A stretch of DNA of 53,961 nt, taken from the NCBI GenBank assembly GCA_964488915.1, contig CAZAWU010000004.1, forward strand, positions 1 through 53,961, in the 5' to 3' direction. Below, piece after piece: positions 2,092-53,961 of the stretch. The notes beneath the pieces were generated by a model that had not been told where the DNA came from, searched no databases, and saw nothing but the letters and a program-made list of their open reading frames with translations. How positions within the stretch are numbered: position 1 is the first letter of the stretch; every line of letters begins with the position of its first letter. The position numbers were made by a program, and so were the translations under genes. The stretch is from an uncultured Burkholderiales bacterium. Its GTDB lineage: Bacteria; Pseudomonadota; Gammaproteobacteria; Burkholderiales; JALYOK01.

Positions 2092-3218
2092 TGCACCGTG
2101 CTCCCAATGTCCTGGCCCGCTGCCTGCCACTGCGTGAAGGTCTTGTAGCTGCCAGTTGGCGACTGCCAGTAGGCTCGTGACGGCTCAGCCAGCGTGTAAG
2201 TGTTGTTCGTGAACCTGATATTCGGCGGCACGATGTCACCAACGTACCCAACATGCGCCGCGCCGCTCAGCCGAATGTCGTTATTCCGAATGAGGAAGTT
2301 CGCCAGGCTGGTCGGAAATGGGGCGACTTCAGAGCGCGCGACGTTCTGAAGGCAAATCGCGTTCGTCCCATCGGCGATGATCAAGTTCCCGTATAGCTCC
2401 ACGTTCTGCGAGTTGTTGAACGCGACCTGCGCGATTTCCCAGCACGATTTGTCCAACCCCTTCACCGACGACGCGTTGCCGTAGATGGTGTTCCACCTGA
2501 TCACTGCATCCCATCCGATTTCGTGATCGATGCCGGACGACGTGTTGTTCCAAACCGTGTTGCTCTCGATGAGCGACTTGACGTTCCCGTCGTTCCAGAT
2601 CCCGCGACCGTAGTTGTCGTGAACGCGGTTGTTGCGCCAGGTCACGAACGCGCCTGCAGGGTCTCTTGTTCCGACGATCTTTGATCCGCCCGCGTCCCAC
2701 TCTGGGTCAAACCGGGAAGTGTTGTTAAAGCTGATCTCGTTATTCTCGATCAGGATGTCGATGGCGGGGCCGCCTGAAACCCCGTATCGTTTGTTGTGGT
2801 GTATCCAGTTCCCAACGACCTTGCCATTTGCCTCAACGCCGGTTTCGCATGCGGTCAACTCGTTATCGTCGACCACGCCAAGAGGGCGGGTCCGGACGCA
2901 TGACGCCGTGAACCGTTTCACTACAAACCCACGAACGGTGTTTGGAGCGGTCGCGCCATAGGCGGTTGCAAGGCCGATCGCGACAGTTCCCCGACCATCG
3001 ATGATGCACTGGCGACGTGTCGCGCAATAGACGGTGCTGCCGTCGCCGATCGTTGCAGTCGACCGCAGCCGATAGGTGCCGGGCTGCAAGCAAAATGTCG
3101 TGTTTGGCGCGCTCACGATCGATCCGAGCCGGTACGCATCGGCCGGGGTCACGACGGTGCAGGCGTCGGCCAGCCACGCGCTGGCGGCGAACAGAACTGC
3201 GATGATCATGCGCTTCAT
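2088..3218 (-). CDS. Secreted right-handed parallel beta-helix (pectin-lyase-like) protein
   Basis: Signal peptide MKRMIIAVLFAASAWLADA; repeated N/I/G-rich units (IENNEISFN, WRNNRVHDNYGRGIW, IESNTVWNNTSSGI). Confidence 0.8.
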   Translation of the reverse strand: MKRMIIAVLFAASAWLADACTVVTPADAYRLGSIVSAPNTTFCLQPGTYRLRSTATIGDGSTVYCATRRQCIIDGRGTVAIGLATAYGATAPNTVRGFVVKRFTASCVRTRPLGVVDDNELTACETGVEANGKVVGNWIHHNKRYGVSGGPAIDILIENNEISFNNTSRFDPEWDAGGSKIVGTRDPAGAFVTWRNNRVHDNYGRGIWNDGNVKSLIESNTVWNNTSSGIDHEIGWDAVIRWNTIYGNASSVKGLDKSCWEIAQVAFNNSQNVELYGNLIIADGTNAICLQNVARSEVAPFPTSLANFLIRNNDIRLSGAAHVGYVGDIVPPNIRFTNNTYTLAEPSRAYWQSPTGSYKTFTQWQAAGQDIGSTVQ

Positions 3219-3237
3219 TGGTTGGTCCTTTCGTGGT

Positions 3238-3423
3238 TCAGTCAAACCCGCCCCGGAATCCATACGCCGCTATTTCCGCTATCGCCGGCGCCGGCCGCCA
3301 TTTGACGCGCATCTGCCGCCCATGCTCAACGCCGATGTGCCAGGCGATCGATGCGCAGGCGTAGGTTACGCCGATCGCGGCGAGGAAGAGAAGAAAGCGG
3401 ATGTCGTCTTTGTGGATGCTCAT
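3238..3423 (-). CDS. Small membrane protein
   Basis: One hydrophobic helix; start overlaps upstream stop. Confidence 0.6.
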   Translation of the reverse strand: MSIHKDDIRFLLFLAAIGVTYACASIAWHIGVEHGRQMRVKWRPAPAIAEIAAYGFRGGFD

Positions 3424-4031
3424 ATCTGGCCCAATCCCTTTGCCTGTTTGTACGCATTGAAGTTGCCGATAATCCGTGACAGTTCCGCAGCGGCGCGCGA
3501 TCCCTCGACAATCTCAGCACGGCTTTCTACACCGCAACGGGTTTTGAGTTCAGCTGTTGCGCTCGGCTCGTCCAAGAACGCAAGCCTTCCGTCCATAGCC
3601 ATGGCGTCAAGGTATCCCCAAAACTCCGGGTCCTTACAAAGCAGCGCCGCCCGTGCTGCAGGCTTCATGTCTGCCCATTTGGTGGGCTTGTGTGGTTTGG
3701 GAGGAGTGCCGTTTCCAGCACCCGACACTTCGGCAGGGATCGAACCCGCACACCCTGATACGGAATGGGCCTTTGATGAAGGCGCTGGCGTTGTCAGCTC
3801 ATCACCCGATGGGTTGGCCCGAGTGTCCACTTCCTTCCGTGCTCCCAAATTCGTATGTTCATCACTCGCAAGCGGCCCAACGATGACCACCGCAAACCGC
3901 TCGCCGTCCAATCCGTCAAACGGATGCGAGCCGGGGCCGTCCTTCTCCAACTGCAGCACGATCTTGCGGCCGGATTTGTTCTCATTCCAGTTGAGCAAGA
4001 TCGCTTCCCCTTTGTAAATTGGACCGGTCAT
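3420..4031 (-). CDS. Hypothetical protein
   Basis: Start MTGPIY is ATGA-coupled to bet stop; continuous with operon. Confidence 0.7.
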   Translation of the reverse strand: MTGPIYKGEAILLNWNENKSGRKIVLQLEKDGPGSHPFDGLDGERFAVVIVGPLASDEHTNLGARKEVDTRANPSGDELTTPAPSSKAHSVSGCAGSIPAEVSGAGNGTPPKPHKPTKWADMKPAARAALLCKDPEFWGYLDAMAMDGRLAFLDEPSATAELKTRCGVESRAEIVEGSRAAAELSRIIGNFNAYKQAKGLGQI

Positions 4032-15346: not shown

Positions 15347-15868
15347 ATGGGGCAGGGGACAATCTACGCCATCATAGAGCAAATCCATCCCACGCAAGAG
15401 CGCGTAAGCAAATCAACAGCTTACGATCCCGGCGATCCATTCAATTCCTCAGAGGAACACCGGCGATCGGCACGCCTATGCACACCGTGGGACCTGTATG
15501 CCAAGCCCGACAAGAACGGCCACGCACCGCTTGAGGGTCATCAAATCCAAGCCGGCAACCAATACAGCACCGATTACAACAAAGCCGGATACGGACGCGT
15601 AGGCGCGCACAGCTACGAGCCCGCAGTCGACAACGGACGCCACGACGAACCAACATGGGTATGGGACGCACGCGACCGCATTGCCAAAGCCCAACGCGCC
15701 CTTCGCCAACACGAGATAGAGCTTCTGGACTGGGTTCTCTTTCACGGCAAAGCAGCAAAAGACTGGGCACGCCACACCGGCCGGCACTCACGCGGCGGGC
15801 TCGACTATCTCAGGGACGCCTTGGACACAATCGCACCAATTTGGCATTTGGCCCCACGAAAACGGTAA
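15347..15868 (+). CDS. Putative late-transcription regulator (Q-position)
   Basis: Last early gene before packaging; C-terminal HTH-like ARDRIAKAQRAL...GLDYLRDALDTIA. Confidence 0.5.
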   Translation: MGQGTIYAIIEQIHPTQERVSKSTAYDPGDPFNSSEEHRRSARLCTPWDLYAKPDKNGHAPLEGHQIQAGNQYSTDYNKAGYGRVGAHSYEPAVDNGRHDEPTWVWDARDRIAKAQRALRQHEIELLDWVLFHGKAAKDWARHTGRHSRGGLDYLRDALDTIAPIWHLAPRKR

Positions 15869-15876
15869 GCGTGGTC

Positions 15877-15904
15877 TTGACGTGATCAAGGTTTGTGGTA
15901 CCAA
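15877..15904 (+). promoter_or_regulatory. Candidate late promoter
   Basis: TTGACG, 16 nt, then TG-extended TACCAA, directly after the Q-position gene. Confidence 0.4.
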
Positions 15905-16052
15905 CTCAGCAAGTTGCCGCTGCTCGCACTCGTTGCAGCATGACGATAAGCCGGTGACTTGGGCGGATGTATCAAAAACTGCAGCGCGAGCCGCGCGGTT
16001 CTGTATTCCGCCCTACCGTCAATCAACTTTTGATCACCAACAGGAACACCCA

Positions 16053-16085
16053 ATGGCCAAGAAGAAAAAGGGCAAGGGCTGTTAA
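16053..16085 (+). CDS. 10-aa basic micropeptide MAKKKKGKGC
   Basis: AGGA SD 7 nt before ATG; stop 12 nt before terS. Confidence 0.45.
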   Translation: MAKKKKGKGC

Positions 16086-16097
16086 TCAGCTTGTAAC

Positions 16098-16571
16098 ATG
16101 AGCGCAGGACGCCCCTCCGATTACACGCCAGAGCTAGCGGAAAAAATACTTACGCGCCTGGCAGACGGTGAAAGCCTCAATAGCATCTGCAAAAGCGAAG
16201 GCATCCCATCGCGCGTAACTGTGTACTCATGGCTGCTGAAAAACGACGATTTTCTTAACAAGTATCGCGCTGCACGCGAGCAACAGGCCGATAGCTTGGC
16301 CGATGACACGCTCGCGATTGCGGACGTTGCAACGCCAGAAAACTGGACAGTTGCGCGGTTGCAGGTGCAGGTAAGGCAGTGGGCTGCGGCCAAGATGGCT
16401 CCGCGGAAATACGGCGAGCGGCTCGACCAATACATCAAGCAAGACACAACGTTTCGAACGGTCTCGGACAAACCCGAGGACACCCCAGAAGCGAGAGACG
16501 CATGGAACAAGACGCACGGAAATGGCCATTTGAACGGCCATGCCAACGGGAAAACGAACGGTCACGGGTAA
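16098..16571 (+). CDS. terS: Terminase small subunit (Sf6-like)
   Basis: GRPSDYTPELAEKILTRLADGESLNSICK...PSRVTVYSWL...KMAPRKYG. Confidence 0.92.
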   Translation: MSAGRPSDYTPELAEKILTRLADGESLNSICKSEGIPSRVTVYSWLLKNDDFLNKYRAAREQQADSLADDTLAIADVATPENWTVARLQVQVRQWAAAKMAPRKYGERLDQYIKQDTTFRTVSDKPEDTPEARDAWNKTHGNGHLNGHANGKTNGHG

Positions 16572-16638
16572 TATTCTTGCGCGTGGTTGAAATGCCGTCG
16601 AGCGAGAAACCTGCGATTTTGAAATAATGTTGCGCGCC

Positions 16639-17097
16639 ATGTCAAAACGGTACGGAACAGTTGAAGATCGGTTTTGGAAAGCGGTCCGGCCGCAATCCGA
16701 TGGTGGGTGCTGGCTCTGGCATGGGCCGCGCGACGAGGCTGGCTACGCGCGGATGCGCATCGGCAAGCGCAAGGCTCGGATGCACCGCTGGTCATACGAA
16801 AGGTTCAATGGCCCAATACCGGAGGGCATGTTTGTTTGCCACCGCTGTGATGTGCCGGGCTGCGTTAACCCGGCTCACCTGTTTCTTGGGACGATGGCTG
16901 ACAATGTGGCCGATAAGGTTGCGAAACGCAGGCAGGCAGTTGGTAGACAATCGCCTCACGCAAAGCTGACCGAAGCCGACATTCTGGCCATTCGAGAAGC
17001 AAACGATACTCATCGCTCACTTGGACGACGCTACGGTGTAACTCACGGAATTATCGGCAAGATCAAGCGCCGTGAGGACTGGAAGCACGTCCCATGA
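16639..17097 (+). CDS. Free-standing HNH endonuclease between terS and terL
   Basis: MHRWSY...VCHRCDVPGCVNPAHLFLGT; paralogue of 539-1012. Confidence 0.92.
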   Translation: MSKRYGTVEDRFWKAVRPQSDGGCWLWHGPRDEAGYARMRIGKRKARMHRWSYERFNGPIPEGMFVCHRCDVPGCVNPAHLFLGTMADNVADKVAKRRQAVGRQSPHAKLTEADILAIREANDTHRSLGRRYGVTHGIIGKIKRREDWKHVP

Positions 17098-19368
17098 GCG
17101 ACAAGGCTACGGCCGAATACGTCTGGAGGCCGCAAACGTGGACCGCAGCACGCCTTTGTGACCTGCCCGTACTTTGACGTGTTGTTCGGTGGGGCTCGCG
17201 GCGGGGGCAAGTCGGACGGTTGTCTGGGTGAGTTCGCCCTACACGCCAAGCGATACAGCAAGGACGCCCGCGGCGTGTTCATGCGGCGTGAGATGCCACA
17301 GGCGGACAGCCTCATCGACCGCAGCCAAGACATCTATGGTCCGATGGGGTGGACGTACCAAAAGGTCGATCGGCAATGGACGGCGCCCAACGGTGCAATT
17401 CTGCGGTTCCGACCGCTTGAAGACGATCGGGACGCCGAGAAGTACCAAGGCCAGCAGTTCACGCGGGTCTACCTGGAAGAGATGACCAACTGGCCGACGC
17501 CGCGTGCACCGGACAAGATGAAAGCCACGCTGCGCAGTGCAGCCGGCGTGCCGTGCCGCTTCAGAGCGACGGCCAACCCTGGCGGTGCCGGCCACCACTG
17601 GGTCAAGCAGCGCTACATAGACCCTGCCCCGCAAGGCAAGGTGCCGCTTGAGGATGAAAGCGGCAAGCAAGACCGCATGTTTATCCCGGCCCGCGTGGTC
17701 GACAACGTACTGCTACTGACCGCGGACCCCGGTTACGTTGACCGGCTGCGGATGACAGGCTCGGAAGCGCTTGTGAAGGCGTGGCTTGATGGCGATTGGG
17801 CTGTCATCGAGGGTGCGTTCTTCGACAACTGGTCGACGCATAGGCACGTAACGCCAGCGTTTGAAATACCGGCGCATTGGGCACGGTTCAGGGCAGGCGA
17901 CTGGGGGTCGGCCCGGCCGTTCTCGATCGGCTGGTATGCGATAGCAAGCGATGACACGCCACTACCCAACGGCATGACACTGCCGCGCGGCGGCATGGTC
18001 CGCTATCGCGAGTTCTACGGCTGTATCCCTGGCAAGCTGAACGAGGGCTTGAAGCTCACAGCCGAGCAAGTTGCGCACGGCATCACAGAGCGCCAGCTAC
18101 CAGACGAGAAATTCGTCTATTCGGTGATGGACCCGGCCGCATTCGCACAGGATGGTGGTCCGTCGATCGTCGAACGCATGATGAAAGCGGGCTCTGGCCC
18201 GTGGCGCCCCGCAGACAACACACGCGTAGGCCGCTTGGGTCACATCGTTGGATGGGACTTGGTTCGCCATAGGCTCGACGGCGAAGCGCCTGAGAGGCCG
18301 ATGCTTGTGGTGTTCGATACGTGCAGCGCGTTCATACGCACTGTGCCGCTGTTGCAGCATGACGAGGCCAAGCCGGAAGACGTTGACACGAACTCGGAAG
18401 ATCACTGCTTTATTGACGATACGCAGGTTTTGACGGATAGTGGGCCTAGGCGCATTGCCGATTTGGTCGGGACTGAGGGGCAAGTTCTGACTGTTGGCGG
18501 TGTGTTTGCCGCTTACCGTTCGTGCCGCATGACGCGGCGCAGTGCAGAGGTAGTGCGGCTGTCGTTCGATGATGGAACGCAGGTCACATGCACCCCGGAT
18601 CACAAATTCCTGACCGTGAACGGTTGGGAGATAGCGTCAAAACTGAGTGGCAAGACCCTGTTGCCATATCGGATCGGTGCCAAGAGTTCAGGGGCGTTCG
18701 ATACTACCTCTGCGGAAAATACTTTCAGCGCAAAGGCGTTAGACTTCATCGCGTTGTGTGGCAGTCGCGTTTCGGAGAAATTCCGAAGGGCACGCACATT
18801 CATCACATCGATGATGACCGATCGAACAACGCCATTGCAAACCTCGATGCGCTCTCACACTCAGACCATCTCAGCCACCACGGCGTTCGGCGGGCTGACG
18901 AATGTCGCGAGCGACTTGAGCGGATCAGACACAAGGCTGTTGCCTGGCACGGTAGCGAGGTGGGGCGCGCTTGGCACAGCGAGCACTACGACAAACACAT
19001 TCGCCCGACGCTTTGGCGGCGCGTTGTCCTCACGTGCCAAGTCTGCGGTAAGCAATACGATACGTGCTACACGAGACGGCTTCAGTCCAAGTTCTGCCAT
19101 CAGAATTGCAAGGCGCGTGCGTTGCGTAAGCGTCGAGCCGATGAACGAGCGGCAGGACGTGTACTGTCTGACGGTTCCTGATTACGGATGCTTCGCGCTG
19201 GCGAGCGGTGTGATCGTGTCGAATTGTGGCGACGAAGCACGTTATGCGTGTGCATCCCGTCCGTGGATCAAGCCGACGCCGCAGGTTGACAAGCCGATTA
19301 CGACGATACGTGATGTGACGCTGAACAAGCTTTGGAAATCGCGGGGCGGAGATAGGGCGAGGGTGTGA
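17094..19368 (+). CDS. terL: Terminase large subunit, intein-containing, with +1 frame break near 17136
   Basis: MSDKATAEYVWRPQ (frame from 17094) joins RGPQHAFVTCPY...GGARGGGKS Walker A, YLEEM Walker B, DWGSARPFS nuclease, EDH/C-DEARY. Confidence 0.92.
18406..19224 (+). mobile_element. Intein (273 aa) in the TerL nuclease domain
   Basis: Block A CFIDDTQVLTDSG, block B TCTPDHKFLT, block F VYCLTV, block G IVSN followed by Cys+1; removal restores EDH-CGDEARY. Confidence 0.92.
18588..19181 (+). CDS. HNH homing endonuclease nested inside the intein in an alternative (-1) frame
   Basis: RLHRVVW...GEIPKGTHIHHIDDDRSNNAIANL...H..HH and CQVCG...FCHQNC; both frames fully open. Confidence 0.88.
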   Translation: MHPGSQIPDRERLGDSVKTEWQDPVAISDRCQEFRGVRYYLCGKYFQRKGVRLHRVVWQSRFGEIPKGTHIHHIDDDRSNNAIANLDALSHSDHLSHHGVRRADECRERLERIRHKAVAWHGSEVGRAWHSEHYDKHIRPTLWRRVVLTCQVCGKQYDTCYTRRLQSKFCHQNCKARALRKRRADERAAGRVLSDGS

Positions 19369-19453
19369 TGGCGCAAAAGATAAGGCCAATCGACATCAAG
19401 TTGAGAGATATCTGTAGATGATCCCGACGGCGATTTCGAAAACAAGCATGGCA

Positions 19454-19636
19454 CTACACCTTGATCGAGTACGGGCAGGATTGATAGGCGCGGATCGTCG
19501 TGTAGTAATTCGAGCCTAGAAACTCGTACACGCAGATCTTGTTCTGTCCGCTGATGAATTCGCCCTTGTAGAACGCGGTCGCCGCTAGCGCTGGCGATGC
19601 TGTGATCAGGGCAAGAATGACGATGAGTTTGTGCAT
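19454..19636 (-). CDS. Small secreted protein (moron-like)
   Basis: Signal peptide ending PALA; two Cys; GGAGG SD; opposite strand to the late operon. Confidence 0.8.
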   Translation of the reverse strand: MHKLIVILALITASPALAATAFYKGEFISGQNKICVYEFLGSNYYTTIRAYQSCPYSIKV

Positions 19637-19746
19637 GGTGCCTGTCCTCCAACGAGGAAATTGAGGCGCCTAGAATACGGCAGAATTGCGACGGCGGAAA
19701 GTCTCTCGACAAGACGCTGGCCCCGGCTCATCCCCCAACATCCCCC

Positions 19747-19777
19747 AAGGGTCAGCCCGCTGTCGCAACCCTTTTTT
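19747..19777 (+). terminator. Terminator-like hairpin before the structural operon
   Basis: AAGGGT/ACCCTT stem with inner CAG/CTG and T-run. Confidence 0.45.
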
Positions 19778-19789
19778 GGAGTGAAGTAA

Positions 19790-20092
19790 ATGGCAAAGCA
19801 GGCGGGCGCAGAAGATAACAGAGATATATTTGAGAAGGCGCTAGATAGCGCGCCTGTCATTGGTGCCGCCATCGGCATGACCGTTGGTGGCGCCATCGGT
19901 AGGAAGCTGGCGCGTAATGCTGCATTGAAAAAATCAAATTTGTTTGGAGAGGGGCGGCGATCAGGAACGCTAGATAAAGCGCTTCGCACGGCAGGATTTG
20001 TTGGCGGTGGTGCTGGCGTTGGGGGCCTTGTCGGGCTTTCGGGTGGCGTAGCGGCGAAGGCGTCGCAGAAGAAGCGAGGCGCGCGTAAATGA
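19790..20092 (+). CDS. Glycine-zipper protein, paralogue A
   Basis: DIFEKAL motif, two GxxxG-rich hydrophobic segments, basic tail. Confidence 0.75.
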   Translation: MAKQAGAEDNRDIFEKALDSAPVIGAAIGMTVGGAIGRKLARNAALKKSNLFGEGRRSGTLDKALRTAGFVGGGAGVGGLVGLSGGVAAKASQKKRGARK

Positions 20093-53906: not shown

Positions 53907-53961
53907 CATCTTCGCGAGGACCGGCGCGAGTTCCTCGAACATGATCGCGCCGGGGCGAAGT
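53907..53961. repeat. 55-nt exact terminal direct repeat (copy 2)
   Basis: Identical to positions 1-55. Confidence 0.97.

Follow-up and report, generated by a model that had tools for sequence, protein, structure and literature searches.

The window, the whole stretch of 53,961 nucleotides (nt) that was analysed (contig CAZAWU010000004.1), carries a phage genome in which the genes for the small and the large terminase subunit (terS and terL) are separated by a gene for a homing endonuclease of the HNH_3 family, and in which terL starts in one reading frame and continues in another. The stop codon of the HNH gene (TGA 17095-17097) shares bases with an ATG at position 17094. The 0 frame that starts there encodes MSDKATAEYVWRPQ and then TWTAARLCDLPVL and ends at TGA 17175-17177, giving an open reading frame (ORF) of 27 codons (MSDKATAEYVWRPQTWTAARLCDLPVL), and, counted from the same ATG, the body of TerL (GPQHAFVTCPYF..GGARGGGKS) is in the +1 frame. 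The frame break at the start of terL is real, and the comparison with related phages makes it probable that terL requires an obligatory +1 ribosomal frameshift, most likely at the sequence CAA_A. The elements of the locus are given below with their coordinates and strand.

16098..16571, + strand: terS, small terminase gene of the Sf6 type (Pfam PF20901 Sf6_terminase, E=1e-37), found at the same position in the relatives L001, L003, L006 and L007
16639..17097, + strand: HNH_3 homing endonuclease gene between terS and terL (Pfam PF13392 HNH_3, E=1.6e-13); the mechanical ORF begins at 16627 and the gene start was placed at 16639
17094..17097, + strand: ATGA overlap of the terL leader ATG and the HNH stop TGA, suggestive of translational coupling; the counterpart in L075 is GTGA
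17094..17135, + strand: terL leader in the 0 frame, 14 codons, translated as MSDKATAEYVWRPQ, with family-wide invariant W, P and Q
17103..17114, + strand: AAGGCTACGGCC, by sequence comparison a conserved piece of the 3' flank of the HNH element
17121..17136, + strand: frameshift cassette GTC TGG AGG CCG CAA A, identical in six frameshifted lineages
17125..17129, + strand: GGAGG, resembling a Shine-Dalgarno (SD) sequence, 3 nt upstream of the proposed P-site codon
17133..17136, + strand: proposed shift site CAA_A, with the Gln codon in the P site and A 17136 as the base presumably skipped
17137..18405, + strand: TerL N-extein in the +1 frame, RGPQHAFVTCPYF..GGARGGGKS (Walker A) .. EDH (Pfam Terminase_6N; 98-99% amino acid identity to the database protein P0001)
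17175..17177, + strand: TGA closing the non-shifted product of 27 amino acids, within CTT TGA C (17172-17178)
18406..19224, + strand: intein of 273 amino acids, C...SN/C, in the TerL nuclease motif between EDH and CGDEARY (Pfam PF14890 Intein_splicing, E=5.9e-11)
18588..19181, + strand: second HNH_3 ORF, nested in the intein in another reading frame (Pfam HNH_3, E=1.5e-15)
19225..19368, + strand: TerL C-extein with the stop codon

The frame break and the relatives that share it

The frame of the TerL body (17095+3n), which is also that of the HNH ORF, is open from the HNH stop onward; its earliest canonical start is GTG 17158, and no SD sequence was found in the 20 bases upstream of it. In the region where the frame has to change the order is GGAGG (17125-17129), CCG (17130-17132), CAA (17133-17135) and an extra A (17136), and when one base is removed between this CAA and GGA (17140) the two frames join to MSDKATAEYVWRPQRGPQHAFVTCPYFDVLFGGARGGGKS, which contains the motif W-x-P-Q-x-G-P-Q. 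The motif is read in one frame in nearly all of the best 120 database homologues, and W11, P13, Q14, G16, P17 and Q18 are invariant in an alignment of 20 sequences. The window has four bases (ACGT) where its homologues encode one codon, and the extra base is absent at that point from 49/49 in-frame homologues. A codon-agnostic pattern in which the amino-acid motifs and the 4-nt gap were fixed ('W x P Q + 4 nt + G P Q x A F ...', or TGG NNN CCN CAR NNNN GGN CCN CAR ...) matched the window once and none of 100 shuffles, so that the break is beyond chance, and among the loci it selected the frameshifted relatives only. An earlier sequence-only reading of this DNA had described the overlap of ATG 17094 with the HNH stop and the run-out at TGA 17175, the HNH gene in the frame of the TerL body, the GGAGG placed 3 nt before CAA, the GTG 17158 without an SD sequence, and the rebuilding of the W-x-P-Q-x-G-P-Q start by skipping one A in CAA-A-CGT; sequence and translation bear out all of these points, and the GGAGG turned out to be part of an invariant cassette.

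Once repaired at the break and freed of its intein, TerL belongs to the Terminase_6N family (Pfam PF03237, E=2e-7): it has the Walker A ATPase domain, W-x-P-Q-x-G-P-Q upstream of it and a C-terminal nuclease. It has 6592 homologues, the best of which (P0001) is 98% identical.

The break recurs in assemblies of various origins. Logan contigs from four public runs of two studies (sand and bioreactor metagenomes) do not differ from the window over 16900-17500, and the contigs behind three database TerL proteins with truncated N-termini (P0006, P0015 and P0020) carry the same break. In total, six frameshifted lineages from independent assemblies were recovered: the window, L002-L005, L006, L007, L068 and L075. 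The junction reads GTC TGG AGG CCG CAA A GGC GGG CCG CAA in L002-L005, ...CAA A GTT GGC CCC CAA in L006, ...CAA A GGC GGT CCT CAG in L007 and ...CAA A CGT GGA CCG CAG in the window. L068, a separate contig of 53,970 bp with GTC TGG AGG CCG CAA A GTT, was the sole match of the codon-agnostic scan in the JGI metagenome collection, and L075 was found as the sixth case by a search with the HNH gene. The frameshifted contigs derive from ENA, NCBI, JGI and Logan assemblies made with different assemblers, and the amino acid identity of TerL among the lineages compared is 72-88%; for four of the five other lineages a value of 74-78% was obtained.

The sequence-only reading had left the choice between programmed recoding and a single-base error or private mutation to a comparison of related terL genes, among other checks, and this comparison favours recoding: five other diverged lineages break at the same base within an invariant cassette and the assemblies of four runs agree, for which reason error and private mutation are rejected. 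The same reading had held that close relatives without the extra A would argue for an error. The closest relative, L001 (98.7% amino acid identity), is indeed in frame and lacks the base, but this does not refute recoding, because its whole first 60-90 nt differ: in the window versus L001, as in L068 versus L072, the first 60-90 nt of terL have been replaced, with 50-55% identity there versus 80-98% beyond.

The cassette and the frames on either side of it

The sequence GTC TGG AGG CCG CAA A is identical in 6/6 frameshifted lineages. None of its four degenerate codons varies, versus 38/47 in the next 60 codons (Fisher p=0.003; five lineages, L075 left out). GGAGG and CAA_A occur together in 6/6 frameshifted lineages versus 0/49 distinct in-frame alleles; singly, TGG AGG is found in 4/49 of the latter and CAA followed by A in another count of 4/49, never both. 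In the coding strands of this genome GGAGG is avoided (20 observed versus 70±7 expected after synonymous shuffling, a 3.5-fold depletion), and many genes have GGAG or GAGG as the SD sequence of their start. An SD-like sequence located 3 nt upstream stimulates +1 frameshifting, while a spacing of 9-14 nt goes with -1 frameshifting (PMC5009743), and a sequence logo of prfB shows the 3-nt spacing for +1 (PMC12421855).

The codon that would occupy the A site in the 0 frame after CAA is AGG in L003 and L007, AGU in L006, L068 and L075, and ACG in the window. AGG accounts for 8% of the Arg codons of the genome and AGT for 6% of the Ser codons, and ACG, with 49%, is the commonest Thr codon. AGG and AGU are the slow A-site codons of the +1 sites of yeast Ty1 (CUU_AGG_C) and EST3 (CUU_AGU_U) (PMC5009743). 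A GGC-UACG-GCC hairpin in the flank was considered as a stimulator and not retained, as its distance to the site is variable.

Both frames that meet at the cassette are under purifying selection. Pairwise, the frameshifted lineages have a proportion of synonymous differences (pS) of 0.51-0.85, which is near saturation, and a ratio of nonsynonymous to synonymous divergence (dN/dS) of 0.08-0.14, and in-frame pairs fall within the same range. L003 and L006 (dS 0.87, dN/dS 0.11) share their leader, which implies that the break was inherited; for the window and its in-frame sister L001 dS is 0.49 and dN/dS 0.024. Purifying selection among such diverged lineages indicates that terL was functional long after the break arose.

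The place where the frame must change can be narrowed from both sides. Upstream, the 0 frame encodes the invariant W-R-P-Q and the +1 frame is shut by TAG or TGA; in L003, L006 and L007 a TAG stands in the +1 frame immediately before TCT GGA GGC, which confines the shift to the cassette. From the GPQ codons on, five lineages differ almost only synonymously in the +1 frame (GGA/GGG/GGC/GGT, CCG/CCC/CCT, CAG/CAA), and the codons for G-P-Q-x-A-F-V-x-C-P, which lie upstream of any start codon, have changes that are almost all synonymous in this frame. The tail of the 0 frame is unconserved and stops in every lineage 18-61 codons past the first cassette codon, GTC. GTG 17158 is replaced by GTC in L007 and L068 and is therefore no conserved start. 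The conservation of W-R-P-Q in the 0 frame and of GPQ in the +1 frame points to a ribosome that changes frame within or just after CAA_A. As is generally expected of selected recoding, the break and its nucleotide context are conserved across diverged lineages, with purifying selection on both flanking frames.

The homing element, the intein and the phage genome

In the closest relatives, L001 and L011, terS is followed by a 66-nt spacer and the ATG of terL, without an HNH gene. The start of the HNH gene in the window (16639) falls at the position of that ATG, so that the gene occupies the start site used by terL in its HNH-less relatives. The HNH protein has many homologues, and five homologous HNH genes (on six contigs examined) all lie directly upstream of a terL of the same family: in L075 beside the frameshift cassette, and in L074, L076/77, L078 and L079 beside an in-frame terL of a more distant subfamily. 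The catalytic domain (PF13392) and the sporadic presence at a fixed terS/terL site (absent from L001, L011 and L072; present in the window, L074, L075, L076/77, L078 and L079; a remnant in L007) are those of an HNH_3 homing endonuclease.

The gene is intact in the window and in L075. In L075 the native leader MNAATAEIRQEV (counterpart in the in-frame L072: MGAAAAEIRQEVVWRPQ) is fused in frame to the HNH gene, and after the HNH stop the sequence reads GTGA-GCGGC-AAGGCTACGGCC-ACAGAAGTC-GTCTGGAGGCCGCAAA, a layout which places the insertion of the element one or two codons ahead of the Trp codon and indicates that it brought its own start, leader and cassette. The piece AAGGCTACGGCC follows the HNH stop in the window and in L075, is kept in L068, L003 and L006 and is absent from in-frame alleles. 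L068, L003 and L006 have lost the HNH gene but still have the flank (AAGGCTACGGCC or ACGGCTACGGCC), which in L068 is exactly that of L075 and is joined to a native leader; L003 and L006 retain ATGACGGCTACGGCC, and in L007 about 35 HNH codons are left. Within the FDVLFGG subfamily an HNH gene or remnant goes with the frameshift in 3/3 cases, and 0 of at least 12 in-frame lineages have an HNH gene. Judged from these layouts, the cassette is foreign to terL and belongs to the 3' flank of the HNH homing element. It thus forms part of a mobile patch that a homing endonuclease targeting terL has spread, or that has spread along with it, and on the same comparison the patch persists after decay or loss of the HNH gene.

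It is possible, though we consider it rather doubtful, that the extra base is a determinant of self-immunity. The HNH nuclease would then read the coding sequence for W-R-P-Q-x-G-P-Q by the insertion site, the register shift of 1 nt would block cleavage, and GGAGG-CCG-CAA_A would compensate for the shift. If this were true, a selfish element would force recoding on an essential packaging gene and spread the site by co-conversion, as a one-base analogue of T4 gene 60/mobA.

The intein of TerL has an N-terminal Cys (C-F-I..), the end ..V-S-N/C and the blocks of the splicing domain (PF14890); it is missing in P0001 and found at the identical site in P0009, the intein of which has a similar low-complexity core. 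The HNH_3 ORF at 18588-19181 runs in the +2 frame relative to the intein, and the intein frame is open across it, rich in Ser, Thr, Ala and Arg and free of stops. L028 (about 1080-1850) has the same nested layout with an HNH that is 52% identical. The ORF looks like a nested, overlapping homing-endonuclease gene and not like an in-frame endonuclease domain. A different intein with a long low-complexity core lies in L068 (about 2750-3790), between YQGQNF and the TerL motif TRVYVEE (C...N), and P0037, P0049 and P0056 have an intein insertion as in L068. Genes or fragments of the HNH_3 type occur four times in the window genome (542-931 and 5098-5364 on the - strand, 16639-17094 and 18588-19181 on the + strand), and the two copies in the early region are 43% and 35% identical to the terL-associated HNH; this phage is unusually rich in homing endonucleases.

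Positions 1-55 are repeated exactly at 53907-53961, and this 55-nt terminal overlap indicates a circularly closed assembly with a genome of 53,906 bp, in which the portal and major head genes are full-length. From its named homologues, the host of the phage is probably a proteobacterium. A distant blastn search of the INPHARED collection of GenBank phages gave only matches of 65-77 nt to Arthrobacter phage terminases and no close relative, and a PDB profile search gave no match. An AlphaFold2 model of TerL from the 20-sequence alignment was not used, its predicted local distance difference test (pLDDT) being about 30 across the N-terminal ATPase domain.

Two other database proteins with short N-termini, P0044 and P0091, were considered as further frameshifts; both are in frame, and are gene-calling artefacts or have no canonical start. 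In an in-frame terL subfamily (L022-L024, L033 and L069; e.g. L069 2440-2500) the stretch from the upstream stop to W-R-P-Q contains neither ATG nor GTG nor TTG. A CTG overlapping the terS stop (CTGAGTGA) is the sole candidate start there, and gene callers consequently truncate the protein (P0044). The database homologues P0046 and P0103 have the motif variants VWAPQGPQ, in which the x residue is missing, and VWEAQPRQ.

The proposed frameshift, its alternatives and known systems

We propose that translation begins at ATG 17094, with ATGA providing the coupling to the HNH stop, and that the ribosomes would first read MSDKATAEYVWRPQ in the 0 frame. Once CAA (17133-17135) occupies the P site, some of them would advance by one base, probably skipping A 17136, and continue with CGT GGA CCG CAG (R-G-P-Q...), so that the shifted product would be a TerL with the normal N-terminus of the family, W-R-P-Q-x-G-P-Q. 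The duplex of GGAGG with the anti-SD sequence of 16S rRNA would be too near the P site, and the resulting strain may favour the forward step, as in prfB; after the step either the tRNA-Gln would re-pair on AAA or the incoming tRNA would bind in the +1 frame. A pause is probably added in five of the six lineages by the rare codon, AGG or AGU, that stands in the A site in the 0 frame; in the window this codon is the common ACG. Without the shift, translation would end in a useless peptide of 27 amino acids.

Several points weigh against this proposal. The evidence for recoding is comparative throughout. Frameshifted alleles are rare, with 0/55 homologous loci in IMG/VR and one match in the scan of the JGI metagenomes; in IMG/VR the cassette pattern recovered one in-frame terL (L008) and two unrelated matches and the frameshift pattern none, and the two loci found in GTDB genomes are both in frame. 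The site is covered by assembled contigs, which leave room for a minor in-frame subpopulation. As to the site itself, ACG being the commonest Thr codon, no pause is obvious in the window, and re-pairing of the CAA-decoding tRNA on AAA involves a first-position mismatch, which makes CAA less suited to slippage than CUU_U. RNAalifold on five frameshifted lineages gave no conserved RNA structure (one covarying pair, with an unfavourable covariation term). The invariance of the cassette, finally, could partly reflect recent horizontal spread of one patch instead of selection on the nucleotides; the leader and the downstream codons beside it have diverged nonetheless.

These points have to be set against the alternatives. 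That terL has been inactivated and is a pseudogene of a defective phage or prophage would fit the rarity of frameshifted alleles and an in-frame closest relative at 98.7% amino acid identity, but it leaves unexplained why six diverged lineages have the break in common with an invariant cassette, why dN/dS in frameshifted lineages is 0.02-0.14, as in in-frame pairs (for L003 and L006 even at a dS of 0.87), and why the circularly closed genome has its portal and capsid genes intact; we regard it as very improbable. A one-base sequencing or assembly error, for which only the a priori frequency of such errors speaks, has a negligible probability, as the contigs of four runs are identical, ENA, NCBI, JGI and Logan assemblies have the same extra base, and the run is just AAA and no long homopolymer. 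It is likewise quite unlikely that no recoding takes place and that translation of TerL begins at GTG 17158, or at a GTG further on, to give a protein that is functional despite lacking W-R-P-Q-x-G-P-Q. This GTG is the first canonical start in the body frame, and gene callers did produce such truncated proteins (P0006, P0015 and P0020), yet it has no SD sequence and is GTC in L007 and L068, and the preceding 6-7 codons (GPQHAF) are conserved in the +1 frame, where all their changes are synonymous. The family's W, P, Q, G, P and Q residues are, moreover, invariant.

The coincidence of the HNH and TerL frames in the window and in L075 had led the sequence-only reading to consider read-through of the HNH stop, TGA 17095, into an HNH-TerL fusion. 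Such a fusion would turn the invariant W-R-P-Q into S-G-G-R-K, L003, L006 and L007 are without an HNH gene (apart from the remnant in L007) and have a TAG in that frame right before the cassette, and no read-through context was seen; it is rejected as a general route and is exceedingly improbable. A +1 shift at the end of the 0-frame ORF, where CTT TGA C (17172-17178) is identical to the prfB shift site and would lead into the TerL frame at GAC GTG, is highly improbable: there is no SD sequence 3 nt upstream, the stop is missing in L003, L006, L068 and L075 (CTT CGA or TTT CGA, with CTT CGA in L003, L068 and L075), and the product would lose GPQHAFVTCPYF, on which purifying selection acts in the +1 frame. 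The heptamer is coincidental and stems from the Tyr-Phe-Asp codons of the TerL frame. Restoration of the frame in the RNA, whether through transcriptional slippage, through editing or through the removal of a group I intron that contains the HNH gene, receives some support from the frequency of HNH genes in group I introns of phage genes, but here too we see little likelihood: the AAA run is too short for efficient polymerase slippage, no Rfam family, introns included, matched at E<=1 in 15500-20000, which speaks against a group I intron, three frameshifted lineages (L003, L006 and L068) have no HNH gene, and splicing upstream of the cassette cannot drop a base between CAA and GGN. The +1 ribosomal frameshift at CAA_A thus remains the reading that we consider probable.

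The likeness to prfB that the sequence-only reading had pointed out holds for the geometry and not for the site as a whole. In both genes a purine run resembling an SD sequence lies within the ORF, exactly 3 nt before the P-site codon, and both have a +1 shift early in the ORF (codon 14 in terL, codon 25/26 in prfB), a short non-shifted peptide and a cassette conserved at the nucleotide level. In terL, however, CAA_A takes the place of CUU_U, a sense codon (ACG, AGG or AGU) that of the A-site UGA, which makes autoregulation by a release factor impossible, and the site lies in a phage terminase gene on a mobile patch. The terL site therefore shares the stimulator and geometry of prfB but lacks two of its defining features (CUU_U and the A-site UGA), and is not of the prfB type. 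With the yeast sites of Ty1, EST3 and ABP140 it has in common that 5/6 lineages read CAA_AGG_C or CAA_AGU_U, with the same A-site codons, which are rare in this genome and slow at the yeast sites; it differs in being bacterial, in its SD stimulator, in a P-site Gln tRNA with weaker +1 re-pairing and in the common ACG of the window.

The association with a homing endonuclease has parallels of its own. T4 gene 60/mobA also combines recoding in an essential phage gene with a homing endonuclease gene inserted directly 5' of it, and the non-coding insert of gene 60 is thought to protect against the mobA nuclease (PMC5009743); there, 50 nt are hopped, whereas in terL one base would be skipped by frameshifting, and protection in terL is hypothetical. 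The free-standing HNH endonucleases of the T-even phages (Seg, Mob), which co-convert flanking markers, resemble the terL element in the position of an HNH gene between two essential genes and in a short replaced patch in the neighbouring gene, with or without the nuclease gene; the terL element belongs to the HNH_3 family, and its homing and cleavage specificity are putative. For phage terminase genes the literature searched offers only one other proposed case of recoding, that of the Streptomyces phage Hau3, a putative bypass linked to UUA decoding (PMC5009743), which differs in mechanism and host group and has no HNH link.

In the literature on terminase frameshifting, of which our coverage was incomplete, no description of the terL site was found. 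To our knowledge, programmed +1 frameshifts of bacteria and phages are few, the main examples being prfB, some tail chaperones and, in Listeria phage PSA, a few structural genes. SD-stimulated +1 frameshifting as such is already known, and what appears to be new is the terL gene, the CAA_A site, the absence of a stop in the A site and the homing-endonuclease flank. If confirmed, it would, by the literature searched, be the first +1 site known from a large terminase gene. CAA_A is not known as a slippery shift codon, and an SD-like stimulator without a stop codon would be a clean natural test of the extent to which SD tension alone can drive +1 frameshifting. Gene callers truncate TerL proteins of this kind (P0006, P0015, P0020 and the call of 736 amino acids in the window), so that terminase-based classification and annotation of phages misses the true N-terminus. 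The link with the homing endonuclease, finally, would provide a testable case of selfish elements that create recoding sites and spread them between phages.

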